From contig MGUA01000008.1 of NCBI GenBank assembly GCA_001799735.1, forward strand, positions 7,175-71,174: a DNA stretch of 64,000 bases. Direction: 5' to 3'. The DNA is from Elusimicrobia bacterium GWB2_63_22. GTDB taxonomy: Bacteria > Elusimicrobiota > Elusimicrobia > Elusimicrobiales > UBA9959. The notes below the pieces were generated by a model, which worked only from the letters and a program-made list of their open reading frames with translations, was not told the DNA's origin and did not search any database. The translations under genes and the position numbers were made by a program. Positions within the stretch are counted from its first letter, which is position 1. The number at the start of each line of letters is the position of its first letter. Of this stretch, positions 9,937 through 58,886 are shown in pieces.

Positions 9937-9951
9937 GTCGGTCTTATAGTA

Positions 9952-9990
9952 CTGCTCCCATGCCGGCCCCGGGGCCTGGCATGGGAGCAG
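9952..9990 (-). promoter_or_regulatory. Intercistronic GC-rich hairpin (19-bp stem, one bulge) between ygeW and the radical SAM gene
   Basis: CTGCTCCCATGCCGGCCCC / GGGGCCTGGCATGGGAGCAG. No U-tract follows on the minus strand. Confidence 0.5.
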
Positions 9991-10011
9991 TGGGACGGCT
10001 TGCCGCCGAGC

Positions 10012-37163: not shown

Positions 37164-37615
37164 TAGTCACCGACCTGGGGCTGCTGGAGCGGCAGGCGGG
37201 CATGACGCCCGGGCTGGCGCAGGCGCTGGAATTTTTGCGCCGGCCGGGGACGGGCGCTCTGCCCGACGGCCGCTACCCGATAGACGGGGAGAAAGTTTTC
37301 GCCATAGTGCAGCGCTACGTTACCTCCGCGCCGGCGGAGCCGAAGTTCGAGGCGCACCGGGCCTACCTGGACGTGCAGTACCTCGCCCAGGGCTCGGAGG
37401 TCATAGGCTGGGCGCCGCTGGCGCGCCTGGAGCTGACCGAGGCCTACGACGCGGAGAAGGATATTTGTTTCGGACGGGTGCGCGGGGGCTGGACGCCCGC
37501 GCTGGTAGAGGCCGGCCGGCTGGCCGTGCTGTGGCCGGAGGACGCCCACGCGCCGCGGCTGGCGGCGGACGCCCCGGCGGAAGTAATTAAAATCGTAGTA
37601 AAGGTGGCCCTATAA
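37160..37615 (+). CDS. YhcH/YjgK/YiaL (DUF386) family protein
   Basis: About 150 aa with G..YPIDGEKVFAIVQRY.T......FEAHR.Y.D.QY...G.E.IGW. Confidence 0.65.
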   Translation: MIVTDLGLLERQAGMTPGLAQALEFLRRPGTGALPDGRYPIDGEKVFAIVQRYVTSAPAEPKFEAHRAYLDVQYLAQGSEVIGWAPLARLELTEAYDAEKDICFGRVRGGWTPALVEAGRLAVLWPEDAHAPRLAADAPAEVIKIVVKVAL

Positions 37616-38019
37616 TGTTGCTCAAAGAACTGATACGCGTGACCATAAACCTGGAGATGGAATCTGTTTCCATCTTCGAGGTGGAGGCTGAAACGTTCGG
37701 CCGCTCCCATGAGAAGGGGGCGGAGATCAAGGAAATTTTCCTGCGGCTGGCCCGGGAGAAACGGACGCGCCTTAAGAAGCTGGGCGGGTACTTCAAGGAA
37801 GGCACCGGCTTCCGGGAACGGAGCACCCAACCATCCCGCTCCATAGAGGCGGCGATGCGCAATCATGTCTCGCGCTCCGAGCGCGCGATAGTCTGCTACA
37901 CCGGCCTTTACAAGCAGCTCACCAAACAGATCTTCAAGGACGCGATGGCGGCGATGCTGGCCGACGAGCGCGTGATGCTGGCCGACCTGAAAGCGTTCCA
38001 AGCCGGGTTTAAGAAGTAA
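37615..38019 (+). CDS. Hypothetical helical protein
   Basis: Overlapping start/stop with the upstream gene. No recognisable motifs. Confidence 0.4.
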   Translation: MLLKELIRVTINLEMESVSIFEVEAETFGRSHEKGAEIKEIFLRLAREKRTRLKKLGGYFKEGTGFRERSTQPSRSIEAAMRNHVSRSERAIVCYTGLYKQLTKQIFKDAMAAMLADERVMLADLKAFQAGFKK

Positions 38020-38020
38020 A

Positions 38021-39709
38021 TTATTTCTTTTCCAGCGCCGCCAGCCGCGCCAGGTTCTGTCGCGCGCTGACCAGGCCGGGGGCGACTTTCAGCGCCCTGC
38101 TGAAAAGCTCCCGGGCTCCGGCGGGGTCCCCGCCCATGGCGAGCAGGATGCCGTAGTCGTTGAGCCCTTCCAGATCGTAAGGATTTATCTCCAGCAGCCG
38201 CGTGTAGAAAGCGGCCGCGGGCAGCCGTCTGCCCGCCCCGGCGTTAAGCCTGGCGGCGGCCAGCAGCGAGGGGGCGTAGCGCGGGTCCGCCTGCAGGGAG
38301 GCGGCCAGGGCGGCGCCGGCCTCTTTTTTGCCGGCGGCGGCCAGGACGCAGTACCTGTTGTAATGGGTTTCGGCGCTCCCGGGTTTTGCGGCCAGGGCCG
38401 CGTCCAGCGCGGCCAGCGCGCCGGGCGTGTCGCCGCCCCGCCAGCGCGCCAGCGCCAGGCCGTTGAGGTACATGGCGTTGCCGGGGTCTTCCGTGGTTAT
38501 TTTCTCAAGTATGGGCAGGCTTTCGGCCGTTCTGCCGAGCAGGTAATATTCCCGCGCCAGGTTGTAGAGCATCGGCTTGGACTGCGAGCGCCGCGCCCCG
38601 TGCTCGTAGATCTTCAGGTCTGTGTCGCGCCGGGTGATGTTTACCGCCGAGGCCATTATCAGAATCAGCGCGGCCGCCGGGAAAAGCTTGCGCAACGGGT
38701 AGAGGGCGCTAGCGGCCCAGAGGAAAAGCCCGGCGTTGGCGAGGTAGACCCAGTGGTCCAGCATCAGGTCGTTGGTCGCCAGCAGCGGCATTTTAGGGGC
38801 GAGGTTGAGCAGGTACCAGCCCGCGCAGAACAGCGCGGCTCTCCCGCCTTTTTTCCACAATAACAATCCCGCTCCAGCCAGCAGCGGCAGCGCCAGGTAG
38901 TTGAGCGCCGCCGAGGCCGGCTGCATGCGGTGGGAATGCATGCCAAAAGGCAGCAGCGCTTCCTTAAGATAAACCAGCACTGTCTGCGGTACCTTAAGGA
39001 AGAGGCCGGAGAGCACCGGCAGAAAACCTTTGGACAGCGCGTCCAGGCCCAACGCCTGGTGGCGCAGGAAAAGGTAGAGGGGGATAAAAGCGAAGAACGG
39101 CAGCAGCTTGAGATATTCTTTTCTGTCTTTTTTCAGATACCAGAAACACAGCGCGCCGAGCGCCGGGGTTATTATCCCGTTCTCCTTGAAGCCGGCCGCG
39201 GCCAGGAAGAGGAGGAAAGAAAGGATGGTCCGGCCTTTGACCAGCAGCAGCAGCGAGGCCAGCGTGCAGGCCGCCGAGGCCAGCTCCGCCCGCCCTGCCA
39301 CCACGAGCAATTGCTCGACGGCGGCGGGGTGCACCGCCAGCAGAATTCCGGCGCAGAGGGCCGCTCCCCGGCCCAGGCCCAGCGCCATGGCCAGGTAGAA
39401 GAACAGTACGGCCGCCGCGGCGTGGGCAGCGAAATTGGTGAGGTGATAACCGAAGGGTCTGTAGCCCCAGACCGCGAAATCGGTCATGTTGCTGACGGTC
39501 TGCAAGGGCCGGTAATAGTTGAGGCCCTGCGAAAAAGGGTCTCCCTTGAAAGCCGCTCCCAGATTGGCCGCGGTGAGCTCTAGCCTCGGATTCTGCTCTA
39601 TCATCCGGTGGTCGTCCCACAAGAACCCGACCTTCAGCGTCAGCCCAAAAGCCAGCAACGCGGCCAGTAATATCCCCGCCGGCGCAAACCAGGGTCTCTC
39701 TTTGAGCAT
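38021..39709 (-). CDS. TMTC-like GT-C membrane protein (DUF1736-like) with C-terminal TPR repeats
   Basis: Start at MLKERPWF (ATG 39709). WDDHRMI, YYRPLQTVSNMTDFAVWGYRPFGYHLTNFAAH, multiple TM helices, then TPR. The upstream extension in the track runs through a structured non-coding element. Confidence 0.68.
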   Translation of the reverse strand: MLKERPWFAPAGILLAALLAFGLTLKVGFLWDDHRMIEQNPRLELTAANLGAAFKGDPFSQGLNYYRPLQTVSNMTDFAVWGYRPFGYHLTNFAAHAAAAVLFFYLAMALGLGRGAALCAGILLAVHPAAVEQLLVVAGRAELASAACTLASLLLLVKGRTILSFLLFLAAAGFKENGIITPALGALCFWYLKKDRKEYLKLLPFFAFIPLYLFLRHQALGLDALSKGFLPVLSGLFLKVPQTVLVYLKEALLPFGMHSHRMQPASAALNYLALPLLAGAGLLLWKKGGRAALFCAGWYLLNLAPKMPLLATNDLMLDHWVYLANAGLFLWAASALYPLRKLFPAAALILIMASAVNITRRDTDLKIYEHGARRSQSKPMLYNLAREYYLLGRTAESLPILEKITTEDPGNAMYLNGLALARWRGGDTPGALAALDAALAAKPGSAETHYNRYCVLAAAGKKEAGAALAASLQADPRYAPSLLAAARLNAGAGRRLPAAAFYTRLLEINPYDLEGLNDYGILLAMGGDPAGARELFSRALKVAPGLVSARQNLARLAALEKK

Positions 39710-39729
39710 TTTGAGATTATACCAAGTGA

Positions 39730-39906
39730 GGGGGCAGCGGGTGCTCCTCCCCAAAACCCGGCTTGCCGCAGGGAAACCGTTGGCCGTCTGACGAGCATAG
39801 CTCTTGATACGGCACGGGCATAGCCCAGCGCGGTTTCCCCCCCGCGGGAAATTAAGCGGGGCCCCCCTTTCCCCAAGGGTTTTGGGGAGGAGCACCCGCC
39901 GCCCCC
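39730..39906. repeat. 177-nt element: 30-bp near-perfect inverted repeat (39730-39759 / 39877-39906) enclosing a multi-hairpin core
   Basis: GGGGGCAGCGGGTGCTCCTCCCCAAAACCC versus GGGTTTTGGGGAGGAGCACCCGCCGCCCCC. Inner helices: GGGAAACCG/CGGTTTCCC, GCCGT/ACGGC, GGGC/GCCC, CCCCGC/GCGGGG. Confidence 0.7.
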
Positions 39907-39927
39907 TATAAAAGGTAAAATGTCACT

Positions 39928-40695
39928 ATGACAAAAACGGCGGACGGGTCGGAGGTTTACTGGGACGGCGATCATTACGACGCCTTCAACCAGCCCTATG
40001 AGGACGACCTCGCCTTCTACCTGGCCGAGGCCCGGAAAGCCCGCGGCCCCGTGCTGGAGCTGGCCTGCGGCACCGGCCGCCTGACCATACCGTTAAAGAA
40101 GAAGGGCATCGACATCACCGGGCTGGATTACGCCGCCCCCATGCTGGCCCGCGCCCGCGCCAAGGCCGCCGTCGCCGGCGTGAAAATAGATTTCAAAGCC
40201 GGCGACGCCAGGAATTTCCGTCTGGGCCGCAAGTTCAAACTTATCTTTATCGCCTTCAATTCCATGCAGCATTTCGGCCGCCGGCCCGAGCTGGAGGGCT
40301 TTTTCCGTTCCGTCAGGGCGCACCTCGCCCCGGGCGGGCGTTTTATCTTCGACGTGTTCAGCCCGGACCCCCGCTACCTCACCCGCGACCCGGAGGAGAT
40401 GCTGCCGGTGGCCTACTACGATGCCCCGGGCGGCGGCGGCAAGGTGCTGGTCAACGAAACCTACTCCTACGATAAAATGGCCCAGACCTCGCGCATCGTC
40501 TGGCATTACCGGAGCGAGAAAACAGGCAAAACGGTCAAAAAAAGCCTTAATTTACGGTGTTTTTTTCCTGAAGAGCTGCAGGCGCTGCTGCACTACAACG
40601 GTTTCAGGGCGCTCAGGCGTTACGGGGATTTCAAGCGCAGGCCTTTCGGCGAGGCGTCCATGAAGCAGGTCGTGGTCTGCGCCCCAGTATTGTAA
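39928..40695 (+). CDS. Class I SAM-dependent methyltransferase
   Basis: Motif I VLELACGTGRLT, plus the acidic post-I GLDYA. Confidence 0.8.
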   Translation: MTKTADGSEVYWDGDHYDAFNQPYEDDLAFYLAEARKARGPVLELACGTGRLTIPLKKKGIDITGLDYAAPMLARARAKAAVAGVKIDFKAGDARNFRLGRKFKLIFIAFNSMQHFGRRPELEGFFRSVRAHLAPGGRFIFDVFSPDPRYLTRDPEEMLPVAYYDAPGGGGKVLVNETYSYDKMAQTSRIVWHYRSEKTGKTVKKSLNLRCFFPEELQALLHYNGFRALRRYGDFKRRPFGEASMKQVVVCAPVL

Positions 40696-40727
40696 AGCCT
40701 CCTCCGATTTGGTATCATTAACCTACT

Positions 40728-41036
40728 ATGAATACCTATGAGTTAATGCTGATTATAAATCCCCAGCTTACCGACGCGGAAGTCGGCGAAGCGGTGGAAA
40801 AGTCCAAGAAGATCCTTACTGATGAGAAGGGCGAGGTGCTGGCCGAAGACAGGCTGGGCCGCAAGAAGTTCTCCCACGCCGTCGGCAAGAATCGCGACGG
40901 CTTCTACGTTTATATGAAGATCAAGGCGACTCCCGAGAGCGTCAAGGTCATCAACCATAACCTGAAGCTGCAGGAGACCGTTCTGCGCTCCCTGCTTATG
41001 AAAGCGGCCGTTGAGCAGCCGGTTAAAAAGGCCTAA
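40728..41036 (+). CDS. rpsF: 30S ribosomal protein S6
   Basis: MNTYELMLIINP... and the conserved rpsF-ssb-rpsR-rplI order. Confidence 0.9.
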   Translation: MNTYELMLIINPQLTDAEVGEAVEKSKKILTDEKGEVLAEDRLGRKKFSHAVGKNRDGFYVYMKIKATPESVKVINHNLKLQETVLRSLLMKAAVEQPVKKA

Positions 41037-41055
41037 GGAACCCCGCGGGGGCCCT

Positions 41056-41511
41056 ATGGACATACGGATACCGGAAATTAACCAGGTCATGATAGCCGGA
41101 AGGCTTACCCGTGATCCTGAACTGCGCTTCACGCAGAAGCAGCAGGGTGTAGCTTCCCTCTCCGTTGCCGTAAACCGCCGTTACCAGGACCAGGCCACCA
41201 GCGAATGGAAGGACGACACCACTTTTGTGTCCGTCACCGTCTGGGGTCCCGCAGCCGAGCGCTGCAAGGACAAGATGAAGAAAGGCAGCCCTGTCCTGAT
41301 AGAGGGGCGGCTGACCGCTTCCGAGTATACCGATAAGACCGGTCAGAAGCGCAAAGAGATGAAAGTAACCGCCCGCAGGGTGCAGTTAATGGCCTACGGC
41401 GAAGCGGCGGGCGGCGAGACGCCCCAGCAGCACGACTCCGAGGAGCCGGCGGCTGTCGAGACGGCGGAGCCCAGGGGCGACGCTTCCGGCATAGAAGAAG
41501 TACCCTTTTAA
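41056..41511 (+). CDS. ssb: Single-stranded DNA-binding protein
   Basis: INQVMIAGRLTRDPELRFT OB-fold start and an acidic tail ending ...EEVPF. Confidence 0.9.
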   Translation: MDIRIPEINQVMIAGRLTRDPELRFTQKQQGVASLSVAVNRRYQDQATSEWKDDTTFVSVTVWGPAAERCKDKMKKGSPVLIEGRLTASEYTDKTGQKRKEMKVTARRVQLMAYGEAAGGETPQQHDSEEPAAVETAEPRGDASGIEEVPF

Positions 41512-41533
41512 AAACCAGTAGGAGCTATCACAT

Positions 41534-41869
41534 ATGGAGAACAAAGAAACTACCCCCAGTCAGAGCCCGACCCCCGCGCCGGCCGCAGCCAGGCCGCCCA
41601 TGGGCGCCCCCATGCACCGCGAAGGCGGTCCCGGTCCTCGCCGCCCCGGCGGCCGCAGGTTCGCCCCGCGCCGCAAGGTCTGCAGGCTCTGCGCTGAACA
41701 CATTGACCTGGTGGACTATAAGCAGGCTCAGATCGTAAAGAGCTTCTGCACCGACACCGGCAAGATCCTTTCCCGGCGCATCACCGGCGCCTGCGCCAAG
41801 CACCAGCGCCAGATCATGAGGGCGGTAAAGATCAACCGCAACCTGTCCCTCATGTCCTATAACGGCTAA
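41534..41869 (+). CDS. rpsR: 30S ribosomal protein S18 with about 45-aa Pro/Ala/Arg-rich N-terminal extension
   Basis: CRLC..HIDLVDYK, ...KILSRRITG.CAKHQR. GGAG 9 nt upstream of the ATG. Confidence 0.88.
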   Translation: MENKETTPSQSPTPAPAAARPPMGAPMHREGGPGPRRPGGRRFAPRRKVCRLCAEHIDLVDYKQAQIVKSFCTDTGKILSRRITGACAKHQRQIMRAVKINRNLSLMSYNG

Positions 41870-46427: not shown

Positions 46428-46429
46428 TT

Positions 46430-46543
46430 GGGGTCAGGTCTTGAATCTTGACATTTTCGGCCAGTTTAAAGCTGACGGGTGTTGGCGGCAAAAAACAGTC
46501 TTTGCTCCGCCCTGCCAAATGTCAAGATTCAAGACCTGACCCC
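46430..46543. repeat. REP doublet (REPIN-like): two inverted 27-28-nt copies separated by 59 nt
   Basis: GGGGTCAGGTCTTGAATCTTGACATTTT at 46430-46457; its reverse complement at 46517-46543. Confidence 0.8.
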
Positions 46544-46684
46544 AGACCCCATTCGCCCCAATCTCCTCAATAAAGCCGCTAGGTTCCCCTGTCGGCCATT
46601 TTTTGCAGGCTGTAGAACCCGACATGCGGTTGTCGGGGGGATCTCTTACAATATAGGGGATAGTTTTGCAAAGAGGGGGGGATT

Positions 46685-47533
46685 ATGGCCAGGCCATTAC
46701 GCATAGAGTACCCGGGTGCTCTATATCACGTCACGTCTCGCGGCAACAGGCGGGCACAGGTCTTCATTGACGACGAGGACCGCAGTAAGTTCCTGAGTAT
46801 CCTTGCCGACGTCAATCGCCGCTTCGAGACGCACTGTCACGCTTACTGCCTGATGGGGAATCATTATCATCTAGTGCTGGAGACGCCCCGCGGCAATCTT
46901 TCCGCGGCGATGCGGCAGTTGAACGGGGTTTATACACAGAAGTACAACTGGCTGCACAACAAGGTCGGGCATGTGTTCCAAGGGCGGTACAAGGCGATAA
47001 TCATAGAGCGGGACGCGCACCTGCTGGAAGCCGCGCGCTACGTGGTGCTCAATCCGGTAAGGGCGGGTATCGCCCGTGGGCCGGAAGATTGGCCTTGGAG
47101 CAGCTATTTGGCTACCGCCGGGTTGGCTGAGCCCGAACCTTGCCTGGACACGAGGTGGCTGCTGGGGCAATTCGGCCAGGAACCGACTGACGCAACGAAA
47201 AGATACGTCGATTTTGTCCTCGAGGCCACAGATATCGACCTCGAGACCCAGATAGTCTCGGGTATGGTGCTGGGAAGTGAAGAATTCGCTGCCTGGTGCA
47301 GACAGCAGGCGCTGGACTCCGGTAACATGCGTGAAGTTCCCAAGGCGCAGAGGTTTGCCGGAAGGCCTGACCTTGCCAATATACTGAACGGCCCAGGCAG
47401 AAAGGTCTGGAAGGTGTTCGAAGCTGTGGAAACCCACGGCTATTCCCAGAAAGCCGTGGCTGACGTGCTCGGGGTTCATTACTCGGCGGTCAGCAAGCTG
47501 CTGTCCCGCAAAATGTCAAGATTCAAGACCTGA
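46685..47533 (+). CDS. REP-associated tyrosine transposase (IS200-like Y1 HUH) with C-terminal DnaA-C-like HTH
   Basis: YHVTSRGN, AYCLMGNHYHLVLE (HUH), GHVFQGRYKA (catalytic Tyr), and a C-terminal YSQKAVADVLGVHYSAVSKLLSR. Confidence 0.85.
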   Translation: MARPLRIEYPGALYHVTSRGNRRAQVFIDDEDRSKFLSILADVNRRFETHCHAYCLMGNHYHLVLETPRGNLSAAMRQLNGVYTQKYNWLHNKVGHVFQGRYKAIIIERDAHLLEAARYVVLNPVRAGIARGPEDWPWSSYLATAGLAEPEPCLDTRWLLGQFGQEPTDATKRYVDFVLEATDIDLETQIVSGMVLGSEEFAAWCRQQALDSGNMREVPKAQRFAGRPDLANILNGPGRKVWKVFEAVETHGYSQKAVADVLGVHYSAVSKLLSRKMSRFKT

Positions 47534-47537
47534 CCCC
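47510..47537. repeat. Third REP copy; encodes the last residues and stop of the RAYT
   Basis: AAAATGTCAAGATTCAAGACCTGACCCC, identical to the reverse complement of the copy at 46430. Confidence 0.85.
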
Positions 47538-47604
47538 ATCCACTTTTTATATAATGGATATCGTATATAGATATCATTCGGCCGAAGCCCTGTAAAAGGA
47601 TGTC

Positions 47605-54435: not shown

Positions 54436-54509
54436 GCGGGCGTGGTTCAGTGGTAGAACGCGACCTTGCCAAGGTTGAGATGTGGGTTCGATTCCCATCG
54501 CCCGCTCCA
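54436..54509 (+). tRNA. tRNA-Gly (anticodon GCC), CCA encoded
   Basis: Acceptor GCGGGCG/CGCCCGC, D-arm GTTCAGTGGTAGAAC, anticodon loop CTTGCCAAG, T-arm GTGGGTTCGATTCCCAT, discriminator T plus CCA. Confidence 0.95.
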
Positions 54510-58832: not shown

Positions 58833-58886
58833 AATCCGGGGACACAATACTTAATTCTGTCCAATTAAGTATTGTGTCCCCGGATT
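58833..58886. repeat. Perfect 24-bp inverted repeat with 6-nt spacer
   Basis: AATCCGGGGACACAATACTTAATT / CTGTCC / AATTAAGTATTGTGTCCCCGGATT, 12 nt after the last rSAM stop. No T-tract. Confidence 0.85.

Follow-up and report, generated by a model that had tools for sequence, protein, structure and literature searches.

A dispersed family of hairpin repeats in Elusimicrobia that resembles miniature mobile DNA and harbors a nested 46-nt module

Short structured repeats, such as the REP, REPIN, BIME and Correia elements, are well studied in Proteobacteria; to our knowledge, they have received almost no attention in the Elusimicrobia and other uncultivated phyla. REPINs, whose 16-mer REP ends are conserved, whose apex is variable and whose 5' tetranucleotide is GTAG, are reportedly mobilized by RAYT Y1 transposases (Nunvar 2010; Ton-Hoang 2012). 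They are extragenic, present in multiple copies, capable of forming hairpins in single-stranded DNA or mRNA, and marked by many compensatory changes; in their excision products the left end and the spacer are removed and the 3' end is left, which gives a hairpin whose 5' tail is the complement of the end that stays behind (Bertels & Rainey 2011, PMC3116915). Classical MITEs (Correia/CREE of Neisseria, ERIC, RUP and Nezha) are dispersed, non-coding intergenic hairpins of 100-200 nt that are polymorphic for presence or absence and have conserved terminal inverted repeats matching an IS transposase, along with a target-site duplication (e.g. TA). The ends of IS200/IS605 elements and PATEs form strand-specific hairpins in single-stranded DNA, with distinct subterminal LE and RE hairpins, and these elements insert without target duplication and in fixed orientation at a short target. 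In the attC sites of integrons, structure rather than sequence is conserved in a folded, strand-specific single strand with conserved R'' and R' ends, a variable center and extrahelical bases, and the sites stand in cassette arrays beside an integrase.

Here we describe a hairpin from a 64-kb stretch of DNA (the window, by which we mean the whole stretch analyzed) that belongs to an Elusimicrobia bacterium in groundwater metagenomes of the Rifle aquifer. We propose, at a probability of roughly 0.6, that this hairpin is a non-autonomous element of REPIN/MITE-like behavior, which moves in the form of single-stranded DNA and has a second mini-element within it (Table 1). It looks like miniature mobile DNA and not like a dedicated RNA gene, because it is one copy of a multi-copy family and has itself been invaded by a 46-nt module. 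Judging from comparison with its relatives, the 177 nt that were singled out by a sequence-only reading of the window are two nested elements, a composition invisible from the window alone.

Table 1. Coordinates of the hairpin, its parts, its gene setting and other features of the window
Feature	Coordinates	Strand	Remarks
Whole inserted unit (outer hairpin and nested module)	39728-39907	-	edges good to about 2 nt; strand assigned as that on which stem mismatches become G-U/G-T
Left arm, closing stem	39729-39759	.	copy-specific sequence; stem pairs covary across 56 copies
Conserved core, left	39760-39781	.	linker GGCTTGCCGCA, 5' half of P3 and TT
P3 helix	39771-39779 / 39831-39839		GGGAAACCG / CGGTTTCCC
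Nested 46-nt module in P3 loop	39782-39827	.	boundary ambiguous by 1 nt (G)
Module hairpin 1	39783-39787 / 39809-39813		GCCGT / ACGGC around GAGC-ATA-GCTC (39793-39803); internal loop CTGAC/TTGAT
Module hairpin 2	39816-39826		GGGC-ATA-GCCC
Conserved core, right	39828-39876	.	3' half of P3, P2 and C-rich tract
P2 hairpin	39840-39845 / 39856-39861		CCCCGC / GCGGGG; loop GGGAAATTAA
C-rich tract	39862-39876		CCCCCCTTTCCCCAA
Right arm, closing stem	39877-39907	.	stem pairs covary across 56 copies
TPR membrane protein gene	start at 39709	-	ATG
-10-like boxes	39716-39721 and 39913-39921		on either side of the hairpin
Class I SAM methyltransferase gene	39928-40695	+	ATG at 39928; followed by rpsF-ssb-rpsR-rplI-dnaB
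RAYT gene	46685-47533	+	282 aa; C-terminal HTH
Repeats bounding the RAYT gene	46429-46456 / 46517-46544 / 47510-47538	+ / - / -	perfect 28/29-nt repeat TGGGGTCAGGTCTTGAATCTTGACATTT
tRNA gene	54436-54506	+	Rfam, 70.3 bits
Palindrome, 24+6+24	58833-58886		perfect; AATCCGGGGACACAATACTTAATT / AATTAAGTATTGTGTCCCCGGATT
Palindrome, 20+1+20	9951-9991		near-perfect; ACTGCTCCCATGCCGGCCCC / GGGCCTGGCATGGGAGCAGT

The arms of the closing stem are 31 nt long, complementary at 30 of 31 positions and 117 nt apart, and the arm sequence is found at just these two sites in the window, against none expected by chance in 100 dinucleotide shuffles. The sole mismatch (A39736 opposite C) is A-C on the plus strand and G-U on the minus strand. 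The predicted minimum free energy is -118.4 kcal/mol on the plus strand (z = -8.15) and -126.5 kcal/mol on the minus strand (z = -9.22), that is, eight to nine standard deviations better than shuffled sequences, none of 200 of which folded as well. The sequence-only reading, which had described a highly structured element in a divergent intergenic region, with a long near-perfect stem, that single mismatch and four inner helices, is borne out on each of these points, the four helices all being backed by homologues. The hairpin lies between the minus-strand gene of the TPR membrane protein and the plus-strand gene of the methyltransferase; a listed 624-aa open reading frame that runs through it proved to be an artefact of an upstream GTG, the true TPR start being the ATG of Table 1. 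Of the two -10-like boxes, TATAAT stands on the minus strand 6 nt ahead of the TPR ATG, and TAAAAT closely precedes the methyltransferase ATG. At an orthologous site that lacks the element (locus L102, 2461-2500), the spacer between the divergent genes is just 39 nt, which suggests that both mRNAs would be leaderless or have very short leaders, and that where the site is filled the GC-rich arms would take the place of the -35 regions.

The hairpin has about 56 distinct relatives in Elusimicrobia genomes and in groundwater and sediment metagenomes, several per genome bin. An exact-pattern scan of the GTDB genomes (one per species) yielded 12 true members, all from Elusimicrobia-type MAGs, one of which holds five of the 12, each on another contig. 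Using the right half of the core as the pattern, a scan of JGI metagenomes recovered 66 loci with about 56 distinct copies, and the genome bins Ga0154402 and Ga0154435 have four to five copies each. GWC2_61_19 and GWA2_61_42 are further family-bearing examples among the Elusimicrobiales. An nhmmer search with the family profile gave 99 matches in 820 kb of fetched loci, some of which carry two copies, and a single match in the window (39716-39908). Over 39780-39877, metagenome contigs reach 30-70 times the depth seen in the flanks, and there are 'loose ends' at 39780, 39814 and 39828; parts of the hairpin therefore occur in many other contexts. Presence of the family depends on lineage, some groundwater lineages of Elusimicrobia having it and others not.

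Without an insert the family unit measures about 133-165 nt and consists of a closing stem of about 30 bp, CCYGG, a linker, GGAAACCG-TTGCG-CGGTTTCC (P3), CCC, P2 with a variable stem and an A/T-rich loop, CCCCCCYTTCCCCAA, and the other side of the closing stem. Within the nearly invariant core, GGAAACCGTT is invariant in the 56 copies, and there is little or no variation in GCGCGGTTTCCCCCC and CYTTCCCCAA, whereas the sequence of the closing stem is new in almost every copy, even within one genome, and still complementary. One subfamily carries an additional conserved 5' leader (ACCGCGAGATGCSMAGTC) and 3' end (CCCCTCCG), both lacking from the subfamily of the window copy. All copies are intergenic, and their orientation relative to the flanking genes is without bias (14 same/same, 14 opposite/opposite, 11 convergent and four divergent); several adjoin intrinsic terminators. 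Position-specific logos of both flanks of subfamily A, in which conservation sets in about 5 nt ahead of ACCGCGAG, contain no -35/-10 promoter at a fixed distance, and a scan of the family consensus found neither a promoter nor a terminator belonging to the element.

Other structured repeats are found in the vicinity of the family copies. A second conserved hairpin family of about 150-200 nt (..GGCGGAGACCGYRGGG ... GAGGCTTGCGTAG ... CACGGTGTG ... CCCYRCGGTAGGCCGCC), without a match in Rfam, lies 20-60 nt downstream of copies at L097, L053, L086, L070, L039, L066, L032, L035, L088 and L041, with which it forms mosaic clusters of structured repeats. The window's perfect 24+6+24 palindrome is probably a representative of a third repeat family, since related sequences adjoin family copies in L049 and L056. 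For the near-perfect 20+1+20 palindrome no relatives were found among the fetched loci.

Alignment of the 56 copies to the specified structure reveals compensatory, double-sided changes in 22 of the 24 aligned pairs of the closing stem; one such pair, for example, is GC in 16 copies, UA in 15, AU in 11 and CG in eight. The covariation score of the stem is 0.219 versus 0.063 in column shuffles, none of 500 of which reached the former value, and controls with slid partners stayed at or below 0.074. RNAalifold also predicts the closing stem from the 56 copies, with 17 pairs showing double-sided changes. In P3, 100% of the pairs are formed and none shows any variation, and the stem of P2 varies with compensation (CCCAGCC/GGCTGGG, CCGCC/GGCGG). 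The three module helices have compensatory changes in five of 13 pairs: in hairpin 1, GCCGT/ACGGC is replaced by GCCGC/GCGGC and GAGC/GCTC by GCGC/GCGC, and in hairpin 2, GGGC/GCCC is replaced by AACC/GGTT, GGCC/GGCC or ATGC/GCAT. As judged from these substitutions, the closing stem and the module helices are under structural selection.

The same alignments bear on the strand that folds. When arms are aligned to each other, transition mismatches take the form of G-U (G-T) 74 times on the minus strand versus 33 times on the plus strand, counts that are not independent events because the copies are related. The pair table of RNAalifold is asymmetric in the same direction, and the three additional mismatches of the orthologous copy in L098 are all A-C on the plus strand. 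Because stem mismatches are mostly A-C on the plus strand, the minus strand appears to be the folding strand. The weak preference for the minus strand in the sequence-only reading is thus strengthened by a family-wide asymmetry and by the stronger fold; the direction is consistent, and it would fit a minus-strand RNA and minus-strand single-stranded DNA alike.

Orthologous loci were gathered through homologues of the methyltransferase. In four of them (L098, L099, L100 and L101; methyltransferase 92-83% identical, with 87% in between) the same site is filled and the order TPR-methyltransferase-rpsF is kept; none of the four outer copies contains the 46-nt module, and that of L101 (83%) belongs to another subfamily, with arms that are different yet complementary. 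In L102 (79%, same synteny) there is a clean empty site, ..ATTATACCAAGT/CCTAAAAAG.. versus ..ATTATACCAAGTGA[GGGGG...CCCCC]TATAAAAGG.. in the window (in another rendering of the junction, ..GAATTATACCAAGT/CCTAAAAAGATAAAATG..), and relatives more distant than this have no element and other upstream genes. Since filled relatives are thus set against a clean empty site, the alignments establish the whole hairpin, arms included, as the unit that was gained or lost, on the basis of one clean empty site (L102), which is compatible with loss instead of gain. On a related contig (X7), position 39726 is joined to 39883, so that the left arm and the core are gone and a 25-nt remnant of the right arm (39883-39907) is left. 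Among the 56 copies, 34 have no target-site duplication, nine have one of 1 nt and 13 one of 2 nt, with none beyond 2 nt; those of 2 nt consist of TC, a dinucleotide that belongs to the conserved ends of the subfamily. The insertion sites of the family have no clear target motif.

Several contigs have irregularities at or next to the element. One (L009) starts within the hairpin, and joints between 'opposite strands' occur at the inverted repeat; another (L010) is a chimera in which the left part of a module-free copy, that of the L033/L049 locus, runs on into the right part of the window's own copy. The repeat thus gives rise to breaks and chimeras in assemblies. A third contig (L007), aligned with 37244-41809 of the window, changes at 39662 from about 87% identity on the left side to 100% over more than 2 kb on the right side. 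It is a mosaic due to recombination or else a chimera, and the break falls in the 5' end of the TPR gene beside the hairpin. Its 100% identity was considered as a sign of constraint on the hairpin and is uninformative in this regard, since more than 2 kb rightward is identical too.

The 46-nt module is absent from most family copies, including the orthologues in L098-L101, and the nearest relatives of module-bearing copies are without it. Where present, it lies exactly at GGAAACCGTT^GCGCGG, in one orientation and in members of every subfamily. The module is thus a separate, more recent and lineage-specific insertion into the P3 loop. Solo modules occur in unrelated contexts in Elusimicrobia MAGs (L015, L016, L019, L028 and L092), where their sites are intergenic, and also in many metagenome contigs; a scan of viral contigs for the module gave no matches. 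The left flank of the module is TT in four of six distinct contexts, with no firm target motif. One family copy (L021, 1330-1450) contains two tandem modules, the first of which is degenerate and placed after GGAAGAT, outside the P3 loop. In another copy (L034, 3534-3806, minus strand), P2 is followed by an insert that differs from the module; it measures about 115 nt and has three hairpins, including ACCGC-ATA-GCGGT. The C-ATA-G triloop on short stems recurs in many small modules of Elusimicrobia genomes.

A bolder reading, to which we give rather little credence, is that the module (GGCCGTCTGAYGAGC-ATA-GCTCYNGATACGGC-AC-NNNC-ATA-GNNN) is itself a self-contained 'homing' mini-element, which would enter the hairpin loops of other repeats in a site- and orientation-specific manner and spread across Elusimicrobia. 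It would stand with the outer family and the other C-ATA-G hairpin modules in a hierarchy of structured replicators nested in one another, which would depend on an unrecognized enzyme or on RNA-level copying, and its conserved internal loop CUGAY/YNGAU would be a putative recognition or catalytic site. If so, few known mobile units would be as small as the module.

For the hairpin as a whole, the mobile reading that we prefer would have the element copied through a single-stranded intermediate, with the hairpin formed in minus-strand DNA as in IS200/IS605 elements and REPINs. An enzyme supplied in trans, most plausibly a HUH Y1 (RAYT-like) transposase, would recognize the conserved core and the small C-ATA-G-type hairpins, and selection for transposition competence would keep the stem complementary while its sequence drifts. 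Within the mRNAs of neighboring genes the hairpin would also fold as RNA, which would be a by-product and not its raison d'être. In behavior the family is closest to REPINs: its members are short and non-coding, occur in multiple copies that are all extragenic, fold into a long hairpin marked by compensatory changes, and take part in higher-order clusters; the 39726-39883 joint matches the geometry of asymmetric excision with the 3' end retained, and a RAYT is encoded in the same window. The layout, however, is inverted relative to that of REPINs, in that conservation lies in the apex and variation in the arms, and the corresponding 5' tetranucleotide is AGTC-like in one subfamily. The RAYT is flanked by another repeat, and copy density looks lower, with one copy in 64 kb; both this density and the inverted layout count against the mobile reading.

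Of the alternatives raised by the sequence-only reading, a MITE comes closest, in that the many dispersed copies expected of one are indeed present, and size, intergenic placement and presence/absence polymorphism agree as well. Nevertheless, the family has neither the conserved terminal inverted repeats nor the duplication of classical MITEs, and it is not assigned to them because its 30-bp arms differ between copies and covary, and because no target-site duplication exceeds 2 nt. With IS200/IS605 ends and PATEs the element would share strand-specific hairpins without target duplication, and the module likewise always has the same orientation within the P3 loop, in most cases following TT; on the other hand, there is one long closing stem instead of separate LE and RE hairpins, functional IS200/IS605 ends are usually longer than the 46 nt of the module, and no TnpA or TnpB is linked. 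The attC sites resemble the family in their strand-specific conservation of structure over sequence, but none of their ends, extrahelical bases or integrase-linked arrays is seen here.

The window does encode an enzyme of the class that mobilizes hairpins of this sort in single-stranded form, a RAYT whose gene lies 7 kb from the hairpin (NF047646, 86.8 bits, the cut-off being 80; PF01797, 47.4 bits). This gene is bounded by its own repeats (Table 1), the first two of which form a 116-nt REPIN-like doublet, and the 92% relative L098 lacks the RAYT insert between its ABC_tran and MlaD genes. RAYT homologues in L107 and L109 have their own 29-31-nt terminal inverted repeats of the same kind (GGGGTCAGGTCTTG...), and the family profile at E<=1 detected no family copy beside any of the three genes. 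The window RAYT was accordingly rejected as the cognate enzyme, being flanked, as are the two homologues, by GGGGTCAGGTCTTG... repeats and not by family copies. No Y1 gene was found within about 6 kb of about 100 family loci, tblastn with the RAYT against all fetched loci returned no further copy, and these loci held no autonomous version in which the core halves are split by an ORF. That no family-linked mobilizing enzyme was found near the approximately 100 loci, and that there is no target-site duplication beyond the possible 2-nt TC, both weigh against mobility.

The strongest rival, which we consider unlikely, holds that the copies are paralogous structured sRNA genes, or an RNA module within mRNAs, expressed from the window's minus strand, in which the conserved G-rich junction and loops (UUGGGGAAAGGGGGG.., GGGGGGGAAACCGCGC, minus strand) would bind a protein or target RNA and the 46-nt module would serve as an optional peripheral domain. 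Extensive covariation in the closing stem and module hairpins, together with a near-invariant unpaired core, is expected of a functional RNA no less than of a mobile hairpin, and tolerance of G-U on one strand and retention at the orthologous site in relatives with methyltransferases 83-100% identical point the same way. Words of the family are also present in sediment and soil metatranscriptome contigs (summed contig word depth 2-240); these Logan contigs, however, are unstranded, often continue into the flanks and could be DNA, and, recording presence only, indicate just that some copies undergo transcription or that the samples contain DNA. Against an RNA gene stand the random orientation relative to genes, the absence from both flanks of any promoter or terminator conserved at a fixed distance, the subfamily replacement in L101 and the empty site in L102, and the nesting of unrelated hairpin modules inside the element; furthermore, a near-perfect 30-bp RNA duplex would be an RNase III substrate. 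The discrete RNA gene of about 180 nt favored by the sequence-only reading finds no support, in view of the dispersed multi-copy family, the empty site, the lack of an orientation preference and the lack of fixed promoters and terminators.

Neither did comparison with known RNAs lend support to this rival. In an Rfam 15 scan of the whole window at gathering score the only match was one tRNA (Table 1), in agreement with the earlier impression that the hairpin belongs to no recognizable RNA family. A local scan at E<10 gave nothing credible, the best match (E = 0.065, 24 bits against a gathering score of 50) being a chance resemblance to a flavivirus CRE, and a scan of 19 family loci returned tRNAs only. 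A hammerhead ribozyme, for which we required a CUGANGA ... GAAA core around three stems, was considered on account of CUGAYGAG in the module and rejected: there is no GAAA after the apical stem, nor an Rfam hammerhead match at E<10. A domain V of group II introns, suggested by GCCGUAU on the minus strand, lacks the GNRA loop and the 2-nt bulge, and a K-turn or C/D-like loop, suggested by tandem GA, has an unsuitable bulge geometry.

Less probable again is a host-domesticated cis element in DNA or mRNA, with a role akin to those proposed for REP/BIME. It would act as a bidirectional transcription barrier or an mRNA-stabilizing hairpin, or its conserved core would be bound by a protein of the nucleoid or topoisomerase type, and its usefulness in intergenic regions would account for its being kept there. 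The strictly intergenic, orientation-independent placement would suit such a role, as would long-term retention at one locus, the excess of convergent gene ends over divergent ones (11 versus 4) and the proximity of several copies to intrinsic terminators. A terminator or stabilizer, however, would have no need of a conserved 60-nt core, the window copy stands between the -10 boxes of divergent genes and not at a 3' end, and presence is polymorphic between relatives without visible compensation. Finally, although assemblers do break or fold back at the inverted repeat (L009, L010 and the 'opposite strands' joints), a chance palindrome or assembly artefact can be dismissed, as the hairpin is assembled identically in at least nine independent assemblies, its arm is not expected by chance and its approximately 56 homologues covary.

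A full-text literature search with the core and module sequences, and for papers on non-coding RNAs or hairpins of Elusimicrobia, returned nothing relevant, and the family is previously undescribed. It represents a variant of the REP/REPIN/MITE kind from an uncultivated phylum, with an inverted architecture and a 46-nt element that recurs at one loop position, so that elements nest in each other's loops at one precise point. It also offers a clean natural example of compensatory evolution over about 30 bp of helix. In practical terms, such hairpin repeats break metagenome assemblies and create chimeras, and they mimic structured-RNA candidates in covariation screens; recognizing them therefore avoids false calls of non-coding RNAs. 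If the mobilizing enzyme is found, the family could uncover a new substrate logic among HUH/Y1 (or other) transposases that act on single strands.
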